Below are positions 15,030-32,675 of a DNA stretch of 32,675 nt, piece after piece. The stretch is from a virus. Lineage: Duplodnaviria > Caudoviricetes. The translations under genes and the position numbers were made by a program. The stretch is taken from positions 1 through 32,675 of the IMG/VR virus record IMGVR_UViG_3300044228_004908. The stretch is one strand, 5' to 3'. Every line of letters begins with the position of its first letter. Within the stretch, counting starts at the first letter, position 1. The notes under the pieces were generated by a model. The model was not told where the DNA came from, searched no databases, and saw only the letters and a program-made list of their open reading frames with translations.

Positions 15030-15593
15030 ATGAGTGGCTTAGTTGAATACCATTTTAGCGGTATTCGACCTGACTCCAGAGCCGGCTCAGGCTATGGCAA
15101 CACAGCAAAGTCAACGTCAGGTGTAGGCAGGAACTACACGAAGAATTCTTATTTCCCATACAATGATCCCGTAGAAGACGTAGAAGATCAAGATGCTATT
15201 GGAAATACAAAAACGTTAACAAAATTTAACACCAAGCTAAATAGAAATTATGTTAGTAACAACCCTGCAGGACCTTTTTATACTGACAGGGGCGCTTTTG
15301 TCAATGGCGCTTCAAGAATTGACTTGATTGGTGAGATCAAATTTTCTGTACAGAACACAGACTTGCTTTTAGAGATGCACAGCTCTCTTGGTGGTATTTC
15401 CCAGCTTTATGCAATGGGAAATGGAGCAGGAATTTACAAAACCCGAACTGGGAAAACTATCGGAGTCAATTTTGGTTCTCCGAGGCACGCCCAGGCAGTC
15501 AAGACAAAAAAAAGAATTTATAGGCTAAAGGATTTGCTTCTTCCTGCTGAAGAGCAAGAAGACAAGGAAGAAAATGAAGAGAAACAAGTATAA
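15030..15593 (+). CDS. Hypothetical protein
   Basis: 187 aa, Gly/Ser/Asn-rich with an acidic tail; tightly packed between neighbouring genes. Confidence 0.7.
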   Translation: MSGLVEYHFSGIRPDSRAGSGYGNTAKSTSGVGRNYTKNSYFPYNDPVEDVEDQDAIGNTKTLTKFNTKLNRNYVSNNPAGPFYTDRGAFVNGASRIDLIGEIKFSVQNTDLLLEMHSSLGGISQLYAMGNGAGIYKTRTGKTIGVNFGSPRHAQAVKTKKRIYRLKDLLLPAEEQEDKEENEEKQV

Positions 15594-15837
15594 GAATCGT
15601 TTTAAGCGCCGTGAGCCTCTCGGGCCACAATCAGGCACTTGTCTTGAAGTAAAGGCGCGCGACGGTGAGACAGCTGAAGCCTTAGCCATGAGATTTAAGA
15701 GGCAAGTAAAGAGAACCGGGCTTCATGATGAGATAAGAAATGCTTATATGGAAAGATTTAAATCTAAGTCCGAAAAGAAAAGAGAGAAGCATCTTAGAGC
15801 CTTAAAAAGGCTTAAGAGAAACCAGAATAGGTATTAA
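15574..15837 (+). CDS. rpsU: Phage-encoded 30S ribosomal protein bS21 homolog
   Basis: 'LEVKARDGETAEALAMRFKRQVKRTGLHDEIR...FKSKSEKKREK...A.KR' follows the bS21 pattern V.V...E..E.ALRRFKR.....G...E.R....YEKPS.KR..K. Small and very basic; sits just upstream of scaffold and capsid genes. Confidence 0.85.
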   Translation: MKRNKYKNRFKRREPLGPQSGTCLEVKARDGETAEALAMRFKRQVKRTGLHDEIRNAYMERFKSKSEKKREKHLRALKRLKRNQNRY

Positions 15838-24036: not shown

Positions 24037-27000
24037 ATGGCAGAAAAGACTTTTAGATCTCCGGGCGTATTCCAGCAAGAGGTAGATCTCACACAGAGAG
24101 TTCAAGATCCTCTTGGAACTCCGGCGGGTATTATTGGAACTGCAGAGAGAGGACCTGCTTTTGTTCCAGTTACTGTGGGCAGCATGGCAGATTTTCAAAC
24201 TAAGTTTGGAAGTCTCGATTCTAAGAAGTTTGGCCCTTATGCTGTTAAAGCATTTTTGGATCATGCTAGCGCCGCAACATATGTAAGAGTTTTAGGTGGA
24301 GGAGCAAACTCCACAAGCTCTGATATTTCAACAACTGAAGATCAAGGTTCTGTAAAGAACGCAGGTTTTAAAGTAGCACCTGTTACTTCTGACGGTAGAC
24401 AGGTAAAAGGCGCGGTCCAAATGATCGCAGCTCGTCACTCTGTTCCAGCAGCTGAGTCACAGTCCCCAAGAATATTTACAGACAATGATTCGTTCCCAGG
24501 TGGAGGCGCAGGAGGATTCGTAAACCTCATTAGAGGCGTCATATTCACAACCAATGAAACTGCAGTCGGTGTTTTAGATGGTGCAGAAGACGGAACAGAC
24601 ATATCTGCAATTAGTAACGTTGCTGCATTAAGCACTTCCGGCATAATGGACGGCAAGTTTAAGATTTACGTTTCTTCTTCAAATGATTCTTTTGGAACTG
24701 TGGATGCACAATCAGGTGTCCGCATACTTACAGCCTCTCTGGATCCAAGAGACAAAAATTACATTAGAAGCATTCTAAACACAAATCCAGATAAGTTTGA
24801 AGAAGAAGGTCACTTGCTCTACGCTGCATACGATGTTGAAGCATCTCTCGCAGCAGTTGCAACATCTGGCGACGCTGTCGCAATGCTTTCAGGATCTAGT
24901 AATACGTCGACTAATAATCCAGCAGGCGACGCTTTCTTGTCATCTTATGGTAGGTTTGACACGAGATACGCAACTCCAAAGACCACTGAAATTATCTCTC
25001 AGCCTTTTGGGGAAAAAGAGTTTGATTTGTTTCATTTTGAATCTCTTGATGATGGTGCATTCTCAAACGACCAATACAAGATATCAATAGCAAATATCAA
25101 AGGGTCGACCGATCCACTCAATCCATACGGTACGTTCACAGTTTACGTTCGTGCTTACGATGACTCTGACGCATCTCCTGAGATAATTGAACAGTTTCCA
25201 AACTGCACCTTAAATCCAGACGCTGAGTCGTTCATTGGCGCAATGATCGGTGATCGAAGATTAAAATACAATTTCGATGCCACAGATGAATCAGAAAGAA
25301 AACTGGTATCGCTAGGATCTTACTCGAATAAGTCAAACTTAATTAGAGTTGTTCTTAGCGCACAGCTCCAGAACGGAGACGTTCCTAAGCAAGCATTTCC
25401 TTTCGGTTTTAAAGGTTTGCCAGTTCTTAAAACAAATGATAGTTTAACTGATGTTCCTCCAACAACTCAAGATCCTAGGCTTTACTGCTTAGGCCTCGTT
25501 GGCGGCGCAACCGCTCAAATTTCTGGCTCTATCGTTCCTCCTGTGCCTTACGTTTTTAAGGTAACCAAAGGCGCAGTGGCAACATCAGCTGCTTACGCAG
25601 GTGAGCCTGGCGCCCTTGAGGATGAAGATCCAAGAATTTACTGGGGCGTTAAGACAACTCTTCTTGCTCCAGACACCACGATTAATCCAAACTCAAAAGG
25701 CGCTACTGCCAACGCAATATTGAAATCGAACTTAAACGGTGGGATCAATCATGGCCTCAAGGACATGCTCAAGTTTTCCGGCATTTCCAAGATGGATAAC
25801 CTGGTAACAGGATCTGGCGCCAACGATCTCAATAACAATAAGTTTACACTTGCTCGAGTTGCACTCTCAGCTCAAGCAGGCGGAACAGCAACTGGTTTCT
25901 ACAGCGATACTGAGATTACAGGTGCAGTTGGCCCATACATGAGAGAAGCAGTATACTTGAGAGATGCTAAGCTTGATAACACATCTTATGTTGCAACTGA
26001 TGGAACCAAAGCAAATAGAATTACTTTTGGTACTCTTGCAGCGCAGACTTCTTCCGTGACTTTCAACAAGTTTACAGATTACATGAAGTTTACGACAGTT
26101 CTTCACGGCGGTTTTGATGGTCTTAATATCTTAGATAAGAACGCAGTAAGAATGAATGATAAGTCAGTATCAATCGATTCAGGCGGTGGAGCTGCTACAG
26201 CTTTCACTTCTCCTGGTTTATCTTCAAACGTTGCAGGAACAGGCTTAGACAATAACGGTGTTAACTCTTACAGAGCTGCAGCGTTATCGATACTTGATCC
26301 GTTTACAACAAACATTAACATACTTTCCATCCCAGGTATTAGAGAGCCTTTCGTTACGGACTTTGTCCTCGACAAGAATACCGATTACGGCATGTCTCTA
26401 TACCTCATGGATATTCCAGCTTATGACAAGAATAGCAATAGACTTTACGATGATTCAACTAATCGCCCAGAAGTACAGGCAACAGTTGCTAAGTTTGAGG
26501 CAAGAGGAGTAGACAATAGCTCTGCAGCTTCCTACTTCCCAGATGTTTCAATTGATGATGAAACCAACAACAAAATCGTTGAAGTTCCTTCTTCTGTTGC
26601 GGCAATCGGAGCACTAGCCTTCACAGACAAGGCGCGCTATCCTTGGTTCGCCCCTGCAGGGTTTGATCGAGGATCACTTTCAAACGTACAGTCAGCTAAG
26701 GCTAAGTTGAATGCCGCTGATAAAGATACATTGTACGATGCAAGAATCAATCCCATTGCAACTTTCCCAAGAATCGGACCAGGTGGCACACCAGGTTACG
26801 TGATCTTCGGGCAGAAAACCTTACAGCAGGCAAAATCTGCGCTTGATAGAGTGAACGTTAGAAGAATGCTCCTCGAAGTTAAGCGTCAAGTTGTCGCTGT
26901 TGCAAACAACTTTGTCTTTGAACAAAATACTCCGGCATTGAGAAAGAAATTCGTTGCTCAAGTATCTCCTTTGCTCGCTGCGGTGCAAGCCCAAAGCGGT

Positions 27001-27162
27001 ATTGAGAAATTTAGAGTGATAATGGACGACACTAACAATTCTCAGGCTGATATTGAGTCGAACAGATTAAACGGTAGGATCATTCTTGTTCCTACACGTG
27101 CTATTGAATTTATCTCACTCGACTTTATTATCACAAATGCTGGTGTGAGTTTCGAAGTATAG
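24037..27162 (+). CDS. Tail sheath protein 1 (gp18-like)
   Basis: 'SPGVFQQEVDLT', 'G.AERGPAFVP', 'PWFAPAGFDRG', 'LYDARINPI', 'FGQKTLQ..SALDRVNVRR', 'FEQN', 'PTRAIEFISLDF'. Confidence 0.95.
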   Translation: MAEKTFRSPGVFQQEVDLTQRVQDPLGTPAGIIGTAERGPAFVPVTVGSMADFQTKFGSLDSKKFGPYAVKAFLDHASAATYVRVLGGGANSTSSDISTTEDQGSVKNAGFKVAPVTSDGRQVKGAVQMIAARHSVPAAESQSPRIFTDNDSFPGGGAGGFVNLIRGVIFTTNETAVGVLDGAEDGTDISAISNVAALSTSGIMDGKFKIYVSSSNDSFGTVDAQSGVRILTASLDPRDKNYIRSILNTNPDKFEEEGHLLYAAYDVEASLAAVATSGDAVAMLSGSSNTSTNNPAGDAFLSSYGRFDTRYATPKTTEIISQPFGEKEFDLFHFESLDDGAFSNDQYKISIANIKGSTDPLNPYGTFTVYVRAYDDSDASPEIIEQFPNCTLNPDAESFIGAMIGDRRLKYNFDATDESERKLVSLGSYSNKSNLIRVVLSAQLQNGDVPKQAFPFGFKGLPVLKTNDSLTDVPPTTQDPRLYCLGLVGGATAQISGSIVPPVPYVFKVTKGAVATSAAYAGEPGALEDEDPRIYWGVKTTLLAPDTTINPNSKGATANAILKSNLNGGINHGLKDMLKFSGISKMDNLVTGSGANDLNNNKFTLARVALSAQAGGTATGFYSDTEITGAVGPYMREAVYLRDAKLDNTSYVATDGTKANRITFGTLAAQTSSVTFNKFTDYMKFTTVLHGGFDGLNILDKNAVRMNDKSVSIDSGGGAATAFTSPGLSSNVAGTGLDNNGVNSYRAAALSILDPFTTNINILSIPGIREPFVTDFVLDKNTDYGMSLYLMDIPAYDKNSNRLYDDSTNRPEVQATVAKFEARGVDNSSAASYFPDVSIDDETNNKIVEVPSSVAAIGALAFTDKARYPWFAPAGFDRGSLSNVQSAKAKLNAADKDTLYDARINPIATFPRIGPGGTPGYVIFGQKTLQQAKSALDRVNVRRMLLEVKRQVVAVANNFVFEQNTPALRKKFVAQVSPLLAAVQAQSGIEKFRVIMDDTNNSQADIESNRLNGRIILVPTRAIEFISLDFIITNAGVSFEV

Positions 27163-27170: not shown

Positions 27171-27193
27171 GATATGATATTGGAGTTTTGAGA

Positions 27194-30100
27194 ATGGCTG
27201 AAAACATCCCAGGCGTCCGCGCAAATGAAATTGATCGTTCCCAAGTTACGCCTTTAGGAATCGATGGTATTCCCGCAGGCGTAATCGGAACTGCGCATCA
27301 AGGACCTGCATTCGTCCCAGTTACTATTTCTAATTTTGCAGATTTTGAAAAAATCTTTGGTGTTATTGATAAGGTTGCAGACAAGTCCATGTTCGGACCA
27401 GTTGCAGCTCAACAGTGGCTTAGAAATGCTAATGCCCTGACTTACGTTAGAGTTCTTGGCGCAGGCAACGGAAAGCAAAGAACTAGCGATGATATCGTCA
27501 CTAATGGCGGGTTCGTAGTAGGAAACGAGTTACCACAAGATTCAGGTTTCTTGGGTGCCAATTCATTCGCAAATGAGAATGGTGAACCGGGAAGAGTTTA
27601 CTTTCTTGGCGCTTATATGTCACAGTCAAATGGATCAACCATTTTCTCTGACGCAGGAATACAAAACCTAGGTGAGGACAAAGCACGCCCAATACTTAGA
27701 GGTGTTCTTTTTACACCGTCAGGAACTTCTCTCACACTTTCTTGCTCAAACGGTGTCGCAGACAACATACCTTCAGATACAGACACTACAGCATCAAGCG
27801 TTGGATTTGTTACAGGAACAGTGAACTTTGAAAACGGTTCTCCGAAGTTTACGATGCTGATTAAGGGTTTGAAAGACACTACGGAAAACATCATTACTGC
27901 TTCTCTTGACCCTGCAGAAGCAAAAAGCTATTTTGCAACAGCTTTTAACACAGATCCTTCTAAAATGGAAGAGCGTGGACACTACTTATACACTCATTAT
28001 GATGTTTATTCTGGGTTTGCAGTTGTCACAGGATCTGGTTTGACACCAAGCGATTCTGCAGAAATGATCAACAAGACATGTTCTACGACCTACGGAGGCG
28101 GCTCAGATGTCGTCTTCTTAACAACCAGCTCCCTTGACAGAAACACACTTGACGGTGATGTTCCAAACTATGAAGGATTCCAGACCAGGTTTGATCACGC
28201 AAGATCGCCTTTCGTGATTTCCCAAAAGTTTGGTGGAACTGCGAAAGATCTGTTTAGAGTTCACGCATTAAGCGATGGTGTTACTAAGTCTAAAGCATCT
28301 GATCCTGTTGGATCTAACACTAAATTTAAAGTTTCCATCGAGAACATTAGAAAGTCTACTGATCCTAATAATGACTACGGTACTTTCGATCTTGTCGTCA
28401 GAGACTTCTTCGATCAAGATGAGTCTAGCAAGCAGATTCCTTTGGAGCAGTATAGAGGGCTTTCCCTGGATCCAGGCGCTGACAGATATATCGGCCGAAT
28501 AATCGGTGATAGAAATATTTTTTACGATTTCGAGCAGCAGACAGGATTCCAAAAGATTGTTGTCCAAGGCAAATATTCCAATATGTCTAATTTAATCCGC
28601 GTTGAGATTAACGCAGATGTAGAATCAGGTGATATCGACGGCACAGCGCTTCCGGTTGGATTTAGAGGGCTTGATCACCTGATAACGTCAGGAAGTAACC
28701 CGCTTACAGCAATTCCAGATGCTGGCCTCACAACAGACGCAACTGAGCTACTCAAGTCAACAGTTGAGCCCCCAGTTCCATTCAGAGAACATTTACTTAT
28801 TGGTTCTGGTAGCGTAAGCGCTCGCGCCAAACCTTCCTTATATTGGGGCGTTCAATTCCAGCGTAAGGTTGAATTGGCTAAGCCGAATGAAGATTTACAA
28901 TCTGAGCCAACCATTCAAAGTTTCACGAAGTTCTTCCCTAATTTCTACGGCTTGAATAGCACAAACATGAACGTTATGACAGGTTCAAACGCAGGCCAAG
29001 CAGATGCTTCAGGTATCGTATTTGACTGTGATAGATTTAATAACAACGGATTTACACTTGAAAACGTTAGGATTCTTACAGGCTCTGGCGATAAAGCAGA
29101 CGCTTCTTCTAACGGAATCAAGGAGTGGAGATACGAACGAGCAGGAAATGTTACTGCAGATGCTTCTGCTAAGACTAGAGCCTGGACAGTTGATGATACC
29201 AGTGATCAAAAAGTATCTAACGTTTCTAAGTTCACGTTCCCAATCCAGGGTGGTTTTGACGGCCTAAGCATCTTCGATGCAGATTCAGCTAACCTTAATG
29301 ATAAGTCCGCCAAGGGCGAAATGGATGATGCAAACCGCGGACAAAGAGAAGGTTCTACAGTTTCAGCATACTTTAGAGCTCTTGACGTTATGGCAGATAA
29401 ATCAGACGTTGACATTCAGCTTCTGGCAATTCCTGGCCTTCGACAAGAAGTGATTTCAGATCAAGCTATTCTAAAGGTAGAAGACAGGTTCGACGCGCTT
29501 TACATTATGGATATTGAAGAAAGAGACAATGTTAACACAGTGGTTACATCTTCGGTCCAAAAAGATAGCATAAGCGTTGCAAATACAGTTACGGCGTTTG
29601 ATTCTAGAAACTTAGATTCTTCCTTTGCAGCCGCTTACTTCCCAGACGTGACAATGACTGTGGCACAGAAATCATTGGACTCTCAGACGAAAGTTCTTAG
29701 AGAACAAACCACATCGGTTGTGGTACCCCCTTCTGTTGCAGTTATCGGTGCATTCTCCGCGAATGATCGCGTTGCATTCCCATGGTTCGCCGCAGCAGGA
29801 TTTAGCAGAGGCGCTCTCAAGAATGTTACAGAAGTTAAGACTAAATTAAACGAAGACAACCTTGAAGATTTGAATAACTCAAAGATTAACCCAATCCAGA
29901 CGTTCCCGAACTCTGGGCCAGTGGTATTCGGTCAAAGAACTCTGCAGCAAGCAGCATCTGCTCTTGACAGAGTCAATGTTAGAAGGCTTCTGATTGACAT
30001 CAGGCGCTCAGTGCGCCAGGCAGCAAATCAGATCCTGTTTGAGCCAAATAGAGAGGCAACCCTTGCAAGGCTCAGCGCAAGAGTTCGACCAATCTTGCAA

Positions 30101-30280
30101 AACGTTCAGCAGAATTCAGGCATCGATAGATTTAAAGTTATCATTGATGCTTCTACTACAACTCAAGCAGACGTTGAGAACAACACTGTGAGAGGAAAAA
30201 TCTTTATTCAACCAACCCGAACCGCCGAATTCATCTCTCTCGACTTCGTCGTTACAAATGCGGGCGTAGAAGGAATTTAA
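27194..30280 (+). CDS. Tail sheath protein 2 (gp18-like paralog)
   Basis: 'PGVRANEID', 'GPAFVP', 'PWFAAAGFSRG', 'INPI', 'FGQRTLQ..SALDRVNVRRL', 'FEPN', 'PTRTAEFISLDF'. ATG 27194 is 8 nt after GGAG and is preferred to TTG 27188. Confidence 0.95.
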   Translation: MAENIPGVRANEIDRSQVTPLGIDGIPAGVIGTAHQGPAFVPVTISNFADFEKIFGVIDKVADKSMFGPVAAQQWLRNANALTYVRVLGAGNGKQRTSDDIVTNGGFVVGNELPQDSGFLGANSFANENGEPGRVYFLGAYMSQSNGSTIFSDAGIQNLGEDKARPILRGVLFTPSGTSLTLSCSNGVADNIPSDTDTTASSVGFVTGTVNFENGSPKFTMLIKGLKDTTENIITASLDPAEAKSYFATAFNTDPSKMEERGHYLYTHYDVYSGFAVVTGSGLTPSDSAEMINKTCSTTYGGGSDVVFLTTSSLDRNTLDGDVPNYEGFQTRFDHARSPFVISQKFGGTAKDLFRVHALSDGVTKSKASDPVGSNTKFKVSIENIRKSTDPNNDYGTFDLVVRDFFDQDESSKQIPLEQYRGLSLDPGADRYIGRIIGDRNIFYDFEQQTGFQKIVVQGKYSNMSNLIRVEINADVESGDIDGTALPVGFRGLDHLITSGSNPLTAIPDAGLTTDATELLKSTVEPPVPFREHLLIGSGSVSARAKPSLYWGVQFQRKVELAKPNEDLQSEPTIQSFTKFFPNFYGLNSTNMNVMTGSNAGQADASGIVFDCDRFNNNGFTLENVRILTGSGDKADASSNGIKEWRYERAGNVTADASAKTRAWTVDDTSDQKVSNVSKFTFPIQGGFDGLSIFDADSANLNDKSAKGEMDDANRGQREGSTVSAYFRALDVMADKSDVDIQLLAIPGLRQEVISDQAILKVEDRFDALYIMDIEERDNVNTVVTSSVQKDSISVANTVTAFDSRNLDSSFAAAYFPDVTMTVAQKSLDSQTKVLREQTTSVVVPPSVAVIGAFSANDRVAFPWFAAAGFSRGALKNVTEVKTKLNEDNLEDLNNSKINPIQTFPNSGPVVFGQRTLQQAASALDRVNVRRLLIDIRRSVRQAANQILFEPNREATLARLSARVRPILQNVQQNSGIDRFKVIIDASTTTQADVENNTVRGKIFIQPTRTAEFISLDFVVTNAGVEGI

Positions 30281-30310
30281 CTCACATGAGAATATTTTTT
30301 GGCGTGACGT

Positions 30311-30319
30311 ATATTTATA
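30311..30319 (+). promoter_or_regulatory. Putative late promoter motif ATATTTATA
   Basis: Intergenic, about 26 nt before the tail tube start. Confidence 0.62.
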
Positions 30320-30344
30320 ATGAGAGAGATGTTAGGAGCTTGTA

Positions 30345-30836
30345 ATGGCAGAAACACTATCAGTCGCAGAGATGCTTCCAAATAAGTTTGAACCGAAACG
30401 CAAGTTTCGATGGGTTTTTGCTATAGAAGGGATAGACGCATTCTTAATGAAGACCGCAGCTCGTCCCCAGATTCAAACCCCGGCCCAGACAATACAGTTC
30501 ATCAATCACACGCGTTATGTCGCAGGAAGAACTGTTTTCCAGGAAATGAACGTTTCTCTTTACGATCCTATCGCACCTTCAGGTGCTCAGCAGGTTATGG
30601 AGTGGGTGAGAACTCACTTTGAATCCGTTTCTGGTCGTAGTGGCTACGCTGACTTTTACAAGCGTGACTGCCAGATCAAGATGTTGGATCCAGTAGGAAC
30701 AGTTGTTGAACTCTGGGACGTCAAAGGTGCGTTTATCACAAGCGCTAACTTTGGTCAAGACTTGGATTACAATTCTGAAGCTCCTGCAGAAGTTCAGCTT
30801 ACGCTGAGATTTGACAACTGCGTCCTTCAATACTGA
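30345..30836 (+). CDS. Tail tube protein (T4 gp19-like)
   Basis: 163 aa, 'FEPKRKFRW', 'YVAGR', 'Q.VMEW', 'YKRD..I.MLDP.G..VE.W...GAF', 'LDY'. Follows the sheath genes; AGGAG SD. Confidence 0.9.
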   Translation: MAETLSVAEMLPNKFEPKRKFRWVFAIEGIDAFLMKTAARPQIQTPAQTIQFINHTRYVAGRTVFQEMNVSLYDPIAPSGAQQVMEWVRTHFESVSGRSGYADFYKRDCQIKMLDPVGTVVELWDVKGAFITSANFGQDLDYNSEAPAEVQLTLRFDNCVLQY

Positions 30837-30941
30837 TTTAATATCCGACGTATATGGCATATCCGCATTGCTCTTTGTGAGCAAGCCAAAAAATTTGTAT
30901 TCACTGGTTTAACGTCTCTCTCACGTTAACATACAATATAA

Positions 30942-31805
30942 ATGATTCGAAAGGACACCAGTATGTCTCGCAAAAATGATATCTTTACTTCTACTGGCAT
31001 GCACGAACAGATGATGCAGCCATCGATCGAGAGGATGGAACAAGACTTAGGTTTTGACATTCCTGTTGAGCAAGTACCTTTGCCCTCGCAGGGTTTAGCA
31101 TACCCAGAAGGACACCCGCTTCACGGAAAAGTTGCTGTTTCAATTAGAGCAATGACAGCAAGAGAAGAAGATATCCTCACGTCAAGAGCACTTATTAAGC
31201 AAGGCACCGTTATTTCACACCTGCTTTCTTCTTGCCTAATGGACAAGACAATAAACACACGCTCAATGCTCAGTGGTGACCGAACAGCGGTGATGATCGC
31301 ACTTAGAATCACAGGATACGGTGCTGGATATAACGTTGAGATGGATTGCCCAGAATGCGGAACAAATCAACAGTGTGAGTGCAACTTGGCAGACCTCCCT
31401 ATTAGAACCCTCGATCTTGAACCTGTCGAACCAAACACAAACTTATTTGCTTTTAAGTTGCCCATGTCAGGTAAGACCGTTCACTTTAGATTTGCTACTG
31501 GCGAAGATGAGGAAGAGCAATCGCTTCTCACAGAGAGAAAGAGAAAGCAAGGCTTTACAGCAGACAGCTTGGTAACAGATAGACTCCAGCGTGTAATCGT
31601 TTCTATCGATGGAGAGACTTCAGGCGGAAAGATAAATCAATTTATCAGAAACATGCCTGCTAGAGATTCTTTGACCCTACGACGCTATATTGACGCACAC
31701 GAACCTTCGGTGTTAATGACGACACCCTTCACATGCACTGGTTGCGGATATGAAGAGGAGGTGGGCCTTCCGATAGGCCCATCGTTTTTTTGGCCTGAAA
31801 CCTAG
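30942..31805 (+). CDS. Baseplate hub/tail assembly chaperone (T4 gp26-like)
   Basis: 'VPLPSQG..Y', 'MTAREEDIL', 'GDR.A.MI.LR..GYG', CPEC, 'FKLP.SG..V.FR', CTGC, terminal 'FFWP'. True start may be ATG 30963, which has AAGGA upstream. Confidence 0.78.
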   Translation: MIRKDTSMSRKNDIFTSTGMHEQMMQPSIERMEQDLGFDIPVEQVPLPSQGLAYPEGHPLHGKVAVSIRAMTAREEDILTSRALIKQGTVISHLLSSCLMDKTINTRSMLSGDRTAVMIALRITGYGAGYNVEMDCPECGTNQQCECNLADLPIRTLDLEPVEPNTNLFAFKLPMSGKTVHFRFATGEDEEEQSLLTERKRKQGFTADSLVTDRLQRVIVSIDGETSGGKINQFIRNMPARDSLTLRRYIDAHEPSVLMTTPFTCTGCGYEEEVGLPIGPSFFWPET

Positions 31806-32058
31806 TGATAGAGATATCTACCTAGAGCAAACATTTCTTCTAATGTACTACGGTGGCTTCACTTACTCCGAAGCTTATAAGCTCCCAATCCAGTACCGCA
31901 ACTGGTTCATCGATCGAATTAATAAAGAATTTAAAAAAGCAGCCGACCAGGGTGAAGCCGCGCAGTCAAGAGCCGCGCATCAAAACGACCCTACAACAAG
32001 AGCACTTTCAGGTCACTCCCGAGCAGAAGGACCTTCTAGAATCAGAAGATTTACGTAA
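31786..32058 (+). CDS. gp51-like C-terminal module, probably made as a frameshifted extension of the gp26-like protein
   Basis: The frame of ORF 31843 is open upstream to a TAG at 31774-31776 and reads FFGLKPSDRDIYLEQTFLLMYYGGFTYSEAYKLPIQYRNWFI, resembling the gp51 pattern F.LM.....S..E...M...ER. ATG 31843 has no SD at usable spacing. Confidence 0.65.
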   Translation, partial: FFGLKPSDRDIYLEQTFLLMYYGGFTYSEAYKLPIQYRNWFIDRINKEFKKAADQGEAAQSRAAHQNDPTTRALSGHSRAEGPSRIRRFT

Positions 32059-32062
32059 CTGT

Positions 32063-32070
32063 ATATTTAC
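32063..32070 (+). promoter_or_regulatory. Putative late promoter motif ATATTTAC
   Basis: Intergenic, about 41 nt before ATG 32111. Confidence 0.55.
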
Positions 32071-32110
32071 TAAATGCTGATAAGCAAAAATCCCAACAAC
32101 GGTGTAAGAC

Positions 32111-32675
32111 ATGGCAGAAGGTATTGACAATCTATTAGCGCAGCTAGATTTACTCGTAAGTCAAAATAATTCGATCACTGCAACAGTGTCAAATCTGCAA
32201 GAGCTTAAGACGCTAGTAAATGATATTAACGCGCAAGGAACAGCAGGTCTTTCATCTGCGCAGCAAGCTAAACTTAAGACAGCGCAAGCTTTAATTAAGT
32301 CTACAGCTTCTTCTGCAAAACAGGTTGGGCAAGCAGCTTCTGCTGCAGCTGTATCTACTAACGATATGACTGAATCCTTGAAGAAGGCCGGAATGGCTGT
32401 AGGTCTCGGGGCTCTTACAATCGGTGCTTTTAAACTAGGAAGTCAGCTCGACAAAGTAGCATTTAAAGCCTCAGGGATGGATAAAGTTTTCAAGACAATG
32501 GGTGTTTCCGGGGCAGAAGGATTCACAGACGCATTCGTAAAATCGTACGACGAGAAAGTTGTGCCTGTCTTGCAGCAAGCAGAAGATTCTTTTGCATCTC
32601 TTTTCGGTGAAGCACAACAAAAGGGTACGGGTGCAGTTGCTAATTTAGGATTTGACCTAAGACAACAAGTTGATC
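32111..32675 (+). CDS. Probable tape measure protein, N-terminal part (3'-truncated, absent from the ORF track)
   Basis: Open from ATG 32111 to the window end (MAEGIDNLLAQLDLLVSQNN...AGMAVGLGALTIGAFKLG...). Ala/Gln/Ser-rich and helical with a hydrophobic Gly/Ala stretch; canonical position after tube and chaperone genes. Confidence 0.62.
   Translation, partial: MAEGIDNLLAQLDLLVSQNNSITATVSNLQELKTLVNDINAQGTAGLSSAQQAKLKTAQALIKSTASSAKQVGQAASAAAVSTNDMTESLKKAGMAVGLGALTIGAFKLGSQLDKVAFKASGMDKVFKTMGVSGAEGFTDAFVKSYDEKVVPVLQQAEDSFASLFGEAQQKGTGAVANLGFDLRQQVD

Follow-up and report, generated by a model that had tools for sequence, protein, structure and literature searches.

A predicted programmed +1 ribosomal frameshift in the gp26-like tail assembly chaperone gene of a T4-like myovirus from seawater

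The gp26-like gene of a T4-like myovirus from seawater metagenomes very probably makes two tail assembly chaperones by means of a programmed +1 ribosomal frameshift of the G/GT kind. The gene resides in a single contig of 32,675 bases (hereafter the window, meaning the whole stretch of DNA that was analysed). Its short product (TAC-N) is encoded on the plus strand at 30963..31805, with ATG 30963 probably serving as the start; this yields 280 aa, as does the database record, compared to 287 aa from ATG 30942. As described in a previous sequence-only reading of this DNA, the gene ends with TCG TTT TTT TGG CCT GAA ACC TAG, in which a run of 7 T residues (T7) occupies 31785-31791 and the stop codon 31803-31805. 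The predicted shift site is the run itself, TTT TTT T (31785..31791, plus strand), which consists of two tandem UUU_U tetranucleotides; translation of both routes indicated that a slip at either UUU gives the identical junction. Likewise, the +1 frame is closed by a TAG just 5' of the T run, as had been noted (31774-31776, a gap of 8 nt), and is then open until the TAA at 32056-32058. From 31789 to 32058 (plus strand) it encodes a gp51-like C-terminal domain (TAC-C) of 89 aa. The predicted products are consequently the 280 aa protein and a fusion of 364 aa (371 aa from ATG 30942), supporting the earlier suggestion of a short protein plus a +1-phase fusion while correcting its fusion size of ~370 aa.

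The order of genes in the window is terminase, portal, protease, capsid, two sheath genes, tube, the gp26-like gene, the gp51-like frame and the first part of what is likely the tape measure gene. The upstream neighbour, a gp19-like tail tube gene (30345..30836, plus strand), matched phrog_4542 (E 4e-29) and PF06841 (E 1e-5, under the curated cut-off). The ORF at 32111..32675 (plus strand), which is cut at the end of the window and has a counterpart of 670 aa in the relative L001, displayed no match to Pfam or PHROG profiles. Its position is that of the annotated tape measure genes of phages immuto, HSE3 and LIS04, and in 43 of 46 close loci a long ORF follows within 800 nt, often behind a gene of ~80-100 aa. 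Thus, the chaperone locus sits between the tail tube and likely tape measure genes, as in the G/GT type. The ~80-100 aa gene, located between the C domain and the tape-measure-like gene, is present in most close relatives (e.g., L010:4044-4307, L029:4148-4417 and L054:4103-4384) and absent from the window; it had no PHROG match. L022 and L070 carry at this position an ORF of 236-273 aa that by eye resembles Nudix proteins. Elsewhere in the window, the two tail sheath genes are arranged in tandem (24037-27162 and 27188-30280; 1041 and 1030 aa), and a single ORF of 1047 aa at 4709-7852 matches both SbcD-like and SbcC-like nuclease subunits, a fusion of the gp47-gp46 type.

The gp26-like protein matched PF12322 (E 4e-16) and phrog_150 (E 3e-17), and a profile of the family of its N-terminal part matched the T4 gp51 family when compared using hhalign (probability 92.6%, E 4.5e-7), arguing that the N domain is homologous to gp26/gp51 (PF12322). 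A passage of PMC3004832 lists T4 gp26 and gp51 as hub assembly chaperones. The C domain profile matched the last ~50 residues of T4 gp51 weakly, albeit in a collinear fashion (probability 26%, E 7e-4); nine other gp51 blocks scored at or below 1% against the same profile, and an hmmsearch comparison of the C domain with T4 gp51 was not significant. DUF6760 was detected in 13 of 52 aligned C-domain members and a PHROG named tail assembly chaperone in 2 of the 52, while the C domain of the window alone matched no Pfam (including DUF6760) or PHROG family. The predicted structure had a pLDDT of 84; a Foldseek search of the PDB with this model returned no match at E≤0.001, and hence no solved chaperone fold.

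We next consider whether the T run and the reading phase are real. An assembly homopolymer error, in which the genome would carry T6 and one continuous gene, had been named as a possible refutation. Contigs of 4 public DNA runs, one of which is possibly the source of the window, cover the site and contain no indel (this comparison was with contigs rather than raw reads), and 2 IMG/VR relatives (L001 and L002, with 99.7% and 92% protein identity) carry the same T7. Together with conservation of the phase, these observations indicate that T7 is not an assembly slip. Using the gp26-like protein, we retrieved 80 IMG/VR loci, of which 78 reach the stop codon, giving 70 distinct close junctions. All 70 end in F(F/L)WP plus 2-4 residues, and in all 70 the +1 frame encodes the same C domain. 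This frame spans 71-94 codons in the 65 complete close junctions, the remainder being cut by the contig end, compared to a median of 2 codons for the -1 frame, which closes after 2 codons in the window as well. Among 112 distinct junctions of distant relatives, a profile search assigned the C domain to the +1 frame in 105 and to the -1 frame in 4, and detected no C domain in 3. Across all relatives, with exact duplicates merged, there were 174 junctions, 170 of which have the gp51-like domain in the +1 frame; loci that ran off the contig (L003, L005, L109, L196, L197 and L224) or had no C-domain match (L174, L195 and L226) were left out before counting. The same +1 geometry was found in the cultured phages immuto, Mel-JY01, HSE3, LIS04, GXN1, SP-15, LuckySocke and BRock. 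No in-frame fusion of the N and C domains was found among 52 longer candidates, which is weak evidence.

Constraint at the junction extends to individual nucleotides. Of the 170 +1-phase loci, 166 contain, within ten codons of the end of the gene, an in-frame UUU with a pyrimidine as the next base. This is the proper count, since a statement that +1 slippage fits 166 of 166 would be circular for loci picked by UUU_Y. Of the exceptions, L209 has UUU_Y one codon further up, while L172, L175 and L176 are without it. Based on the Phe usage of each gene, 38 loci would be expected to have no TTT in their last 10 codons, compared to 2 observed. Where Pro follows Trp, it is encoded by CCT in 149 of 154 loci, against a background of 517 of 1425 (36%), and this choice gives Leu in the +1 frame (CTG in 124, CTT in 11, CTA in 11 and CTC in 3). 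Among the 52 aligned C domains, this Leu (L3) and P33 are invariant, while F1 and G2 are nearly so, and protein-level conservation of the +1 frame begins at the slip site. The dual coding of FFWP and FFGL that the sequence-only reading had proposed to look for was thus found in related junctions. FFWP-like residues are also kept in L177 and L191, in which the two genes are separate, indicating that part of the conservation acts at the protein level. The UGG codon, which had been named as a slip context, is common at this position but dispensable, as CGT, CAG, CAC, CGG, TAC, TTC, CCA and AGT also follow the site; in HSE3 and GXN1 the site reads TTC TTT CGT C. The 3 exceptions L172, L175 and L176 encode the C domain in the +1 frame and all have AAT CCC AGT AAG before the stop, making a +1 slip at CCC_A a candidate second type of site.

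The C domain appears to lack a start of its own, so that it overlaps the gp26-like gene out of frame as in the G/GT type. The first ATG, GTG or TTG in the +1 frame of the window is ATG 31843, and no start precedes the beginning of the conserved motif. This ATG had been described as lacking an SD; its SD is indeed weak (-2.1 kcal/mol), and the late genes of the phage carry SDs at their starts, yet among the 28 further starts examined, 5 score no better than -3.0, so that the weak SD alone is thin evidence. We questioned whether the C domain might instead be started anew, either at ATG 31843 or at a non-canonical CUG right after the T run, aided by an internal SD that a hairpin brings near. The +1 codon after GGC is CTG in 124 of 149 loci, an SD near the end of a gene is common among coupled genes (stated in a passage of PMC5009743), and L177, L191 and L089 do run as separate genes. 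We nevertheless consider a new start very improbable. The 25 of 149 loci with CTT, CTA or CTC suggest that Leu is kept rather than a start, the +1 frame as far as 14 codons beyond the site holds no ATG in 64 of 69 close loci and no ATG, GTG or TTG in 37 of the 69, and the Met of the MYY motif is replaced in several relatives. Furthermore, a new start would account neither for the use of TTT in preference to TTC nor for the fact that UUU_Y has been lost in just those loci that have a start. In L177 and L191, sisters that represent one event nested among +1 loci (support 0.98), and in L089, the C domain has gained an ATG of its own along with a new stretch at its N-terminus, and the slip site has been lost, representing a third route for supplying this domain.

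Natural variants of the site bear on the mechanism by which the frame is changed. In bacteria, UUU_Ynn has been described as a tetranucleotide prone to +1 slippage (PMC5009743, in part). Common variants are TTT CTT TGG, TTC TTT TGG and TTT CTA TGG. In a phylogeny from which the last 15 codons of the gene were excluded, changes to TTC TTT arose at least 7 times, to TTT CTT at least 8 times and to TTT CTA at least 4 times, indicating that these variants are not a quirk of one lineage. Phage Mu uses a -2 shift, and a -2 ribosomal shift on TTT TTT, which the earlier reading had offered as an option, would reach the same downstream frame with one more Phe. P-site re-pairing after such a shift is possible in 147 of 166 loci, including the window, but impossible in the remaining 19 (TTC TTT, TTT CTA and CTG TTT), which are spread over several lineages, and T hardly ever precedes the Phe pair; we accordingly assign this possibility a very low likelihood, slightly below that of a new start. 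RNA-polymerase slippage requires long A/T runs. Slippage on T7, stimulated by the terminator-like hairpin and leaving some mRNAs one U short, was proposed by the sequence-only reading and could draw on the 9-bp GC-rich stem followed by G and T7 in the window and on runs of at least 7 T in 100 of 166 loci, but it is the least credible of the three explanations because the longest run is only 3-4 T in 62 of the 166 UUU_Y loci, which retain the same +1 geometry and arose several times independently, so that no long unbroken A/T homopolymer is kept across homologs, and because the register of the stem is not conserved. In loci with T7, polymerase slippage could nevertheless contribute to the output. 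The natural variants thus exclude -2 and homopolymer slippage as general explanations, and it appears that only a +1 ribosomal slip fits all of them.

A minority of relatives use the opposite phase. The C domain lies in the -1 frame in L214 and in the cultured jumbo phages RsoM2USA, Atu_ph07, Xoo-sp13, BF and RaK2. In all 6 of these -1 relatives a T precedes the Phe pair, giving T_TTT_TTY, compared to 5 of 166 +1 loci. The canonical -1 heptamer X_XXY_YYZ was found in 1 of 166 +1 loci, identifying the +1 arrangement as a variant rather than the canonical G/GT form.

Two elements lie 5' of the predicted shift site, and both are present as the sequence-only reading described them. The SD-like AGGAGGT (31756..31762, plus strand), a candidate stimulator, ends 22 nt 5' of the first Phe codon. 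GGAGGT ends at this same distance in 62 of 69 close loci; elsewhere, the SD-like word lies at 24-25 nt in 37 of 57 immuto-like loci and at 22 nt in 10 of 40 others. The Glu codon within the word is GAG in 62 close loci and GAA in 2, against a background of 634:518. Pairing with the anti-SD word beat the codon-matched null in 67 of 69 close, 49 of 57 immuto-like and 30 of 40 other loci. Pairing to -6 kcal/mol was seen in 0 of 6 -1 relatives. It was also absent from 5 of 9 phage-record +1 loci, and the weak or absent SD in these loci indicates that the SD is not required. Bacteroidota rarely use SDs for initiation. The immuto-like group (L081 and L091-L170), relatives of a Flavobacterium phage, keeps the SD-like word in a GGAGGG form 24-25 nt upstream. 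The anti-SD region is contacted by ribosomal protein bS21. A phage-encoded bS21 is found among the head genes of the window (15574-15837; PF01165 E 3e-4, under the curated cut-off), and this candidate link might bear on the internal SD.

The second element is a hairpin (31760..31783, plus strand) with a 9-bp stem (31760-31768/31775-31783) that includes one G-U pair. Its 6-bp core (31763-31780, -12.6 kcal/mol) survives with the SD engaged. Here the predicted RNA fold reaches -18.1 kcal/mol (z -2.9, equalled in 2 of 200 shuffles), and the stem has a z of about -4 compared to codon-matched nulls. There are 5 terminator-like matches in 30200-32675, including this stem, compared to 2.2±1.9 in shuffles. 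A conserved terminator-type stem was not borne out: in an alignment of 54 of the 69 close loci, from which near-duplicates and loci with other spacing were left out, RNAalifold retained only 2 invariant pairs, and the register seen in the window was 49.8% paired with no covariation above controls. Folding propensity is conserved more broadly. In 64 of 69 close loci, the 11 codons before the site fold better than the codon-matched null (mean z -1.39, with values near 0 in four control windows), and the 7-codon spacer alone does so in 56 of 69 close, 40 of 57 immuto-like and 27 of 40 other loci. With the SD codons fixed, the effect was kept in close loci (57 of 69) and was slight in immuto-like loci (30 of 57, mean z -0.29). 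On the 3' side, comparison to mononucleotide shuffles revealed a slight signal at most (mean z -0.52, +0.22 and -0.49). SDs known to stimulate +1 shifting lie 3 nt away and those for -1 shifting 9-14 nt away (passages of PMC5009743). Since 22 nt lies outside these spacings, the hairpin would have to shorten the path, or the SD would serve some other purpose, for instance by making ribosomes pause or keeping them close to the stop. In a 70S system, an upstream hairpin stimulates +1 shifting at a stop-codon site only when RF2 is absent (PMC6321510, in part). That the 5' elements stimulate the slip in the phage is something we infer.

Based on these findings, we propose the following model for programmed +1 frameshifting. 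Most ribosomes would terminate at 31803 and release the 280 aa short form. In a minority, peptidyl-tRNA-Phe would re-pair from UUU onto the UUU or UUC one base downstream, and these ribosomes would add the 89 aa gp51-like domain to produce the 364 aa fusion, presumably a minor product. The SD-like GGAGGT 22 nt upstream, together with a hairpin that refolds behind the ribosome, may raise the rate of slippage, while a non-T base before the Phe pair may keep the -1 route shut. By analogy with lambda gpGT, the fusion would hold the tape measure protein and recruit the tube protein.

The model shares features with several known systems. As in the lambda tail assembly chaperones gpG and gpGT, whose G-T frameshift is conserved (Levin 1993; Xu, Hendrix, Duda 2004/2013/2014; cited from passages of PMC5009743), two overlapping frames between the tube and tape measure genes would give a short and a C-terminally extended form from one gene. 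In contrast to lambda, the shift is +1 rather than -1, the site is a single-tRNA UUU_Y rather than X_XXY_YYZ, the signals are 5' rather than 3', and the protein family is PF12322. T4 gp26 and gp51, members of this same family, had been taken as separate genes. They are two genes in T4, one short and one long in T4-type phages, but the genes encoding tail chaperones in T4-like phages have already been identified as such (TAC-N/TAC-NC) by Vladimirov, Gautam, Davidson 2022 (discussed in parts of PMC10885494). Poly-T -1 signals in T4-like TAC-N genes are mentioned in a passage of PMC12846349 that cites Vladimirov 2022; these frameshifts are -1, as in the five cultured jumbo relatives, unlike the one predicted in the window. 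The myovirus HSTV-2 provides another tail chaperone gene with a probable +1 shift: its G-T frameshift is described as 'very likely +1' (PMC5009743, in part). It differs in having an archaeal host. UUU_Ynn +1 sites are also used by bacterial Yersinia YopN-TyeA and by influenza PA-X, at UCC_UUU_CGU (same source, in part). In both, as proposed here, a P-site UUU slips to UUY, and the sites of HSE3 and GXN1 even have TTC TTT CGT C; the site in the window differs in lying within a phage structural operon and having conserved 5' elements. Finally, the RF2 (prfB) +1 frameshift has an SD 3 nt upstream (PMC5009743, in part), and engineered upstream hairpins have been described as well (PMC6321510, in part). 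Like our model, these combine slippage at a P-site YUU with an internal SD, a 5' hairpin or both. Nevertheless, the RF2 arrangement of an SD 3 nt 5' and a stop codon in the A site is not that of the window, in which the SD is 22 nt away (24-25 nt in immuto-like loci) and the A-site codon is sense.

Thus, the logic of chaperone frameshifting, a +1 case (HSTV-2) and the role of gp26/gp51 as chaperones were already known, and the part that may be new is the anatomy of the signal, namely a far SD with a variable hairpin and a one-base +1/-1 toggle. We tentatively raise the possibility, which we regard as rather doubtful at present, of a new bacterial +1 stimulator, in which an internal SD 22-25 nt upstream is brought near by a sequence-variable refolding hairpin and pushes peptidyl-tRNA-Phe at a UUU_Y sense codon, coupled with a toggle between +1 and -1 shifting across T4-like myoviruses through the base before the Phe pair plus gain or loss of the 5' module. 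In the open-access literature covered by our searches, we found no description of this +1 site or of a far SD, and the papers that one such search listed did not contain the term DUF6760. The presence of DUF6760 in 13 of 52 members suggests that DUF6760 proteins elsewhere represent chaperone C domains reached by frameshifting. In the cultured phages that we looked at, the C domain is entered as a separate hypothetical gene or left unannotated, and these annotations would be corrected. The passages of PMC10885494 on sense-codon +1 frameshifts in bacteria describe few validated cases and no general motif. The interest of these loci lies in the direction of the shift, the toggle, and the far SD and hairpin; if our interpretation is true, they would constitute a large natural family of bacterial sense-codon +1 frameshifts, with natural variants ready for testing.
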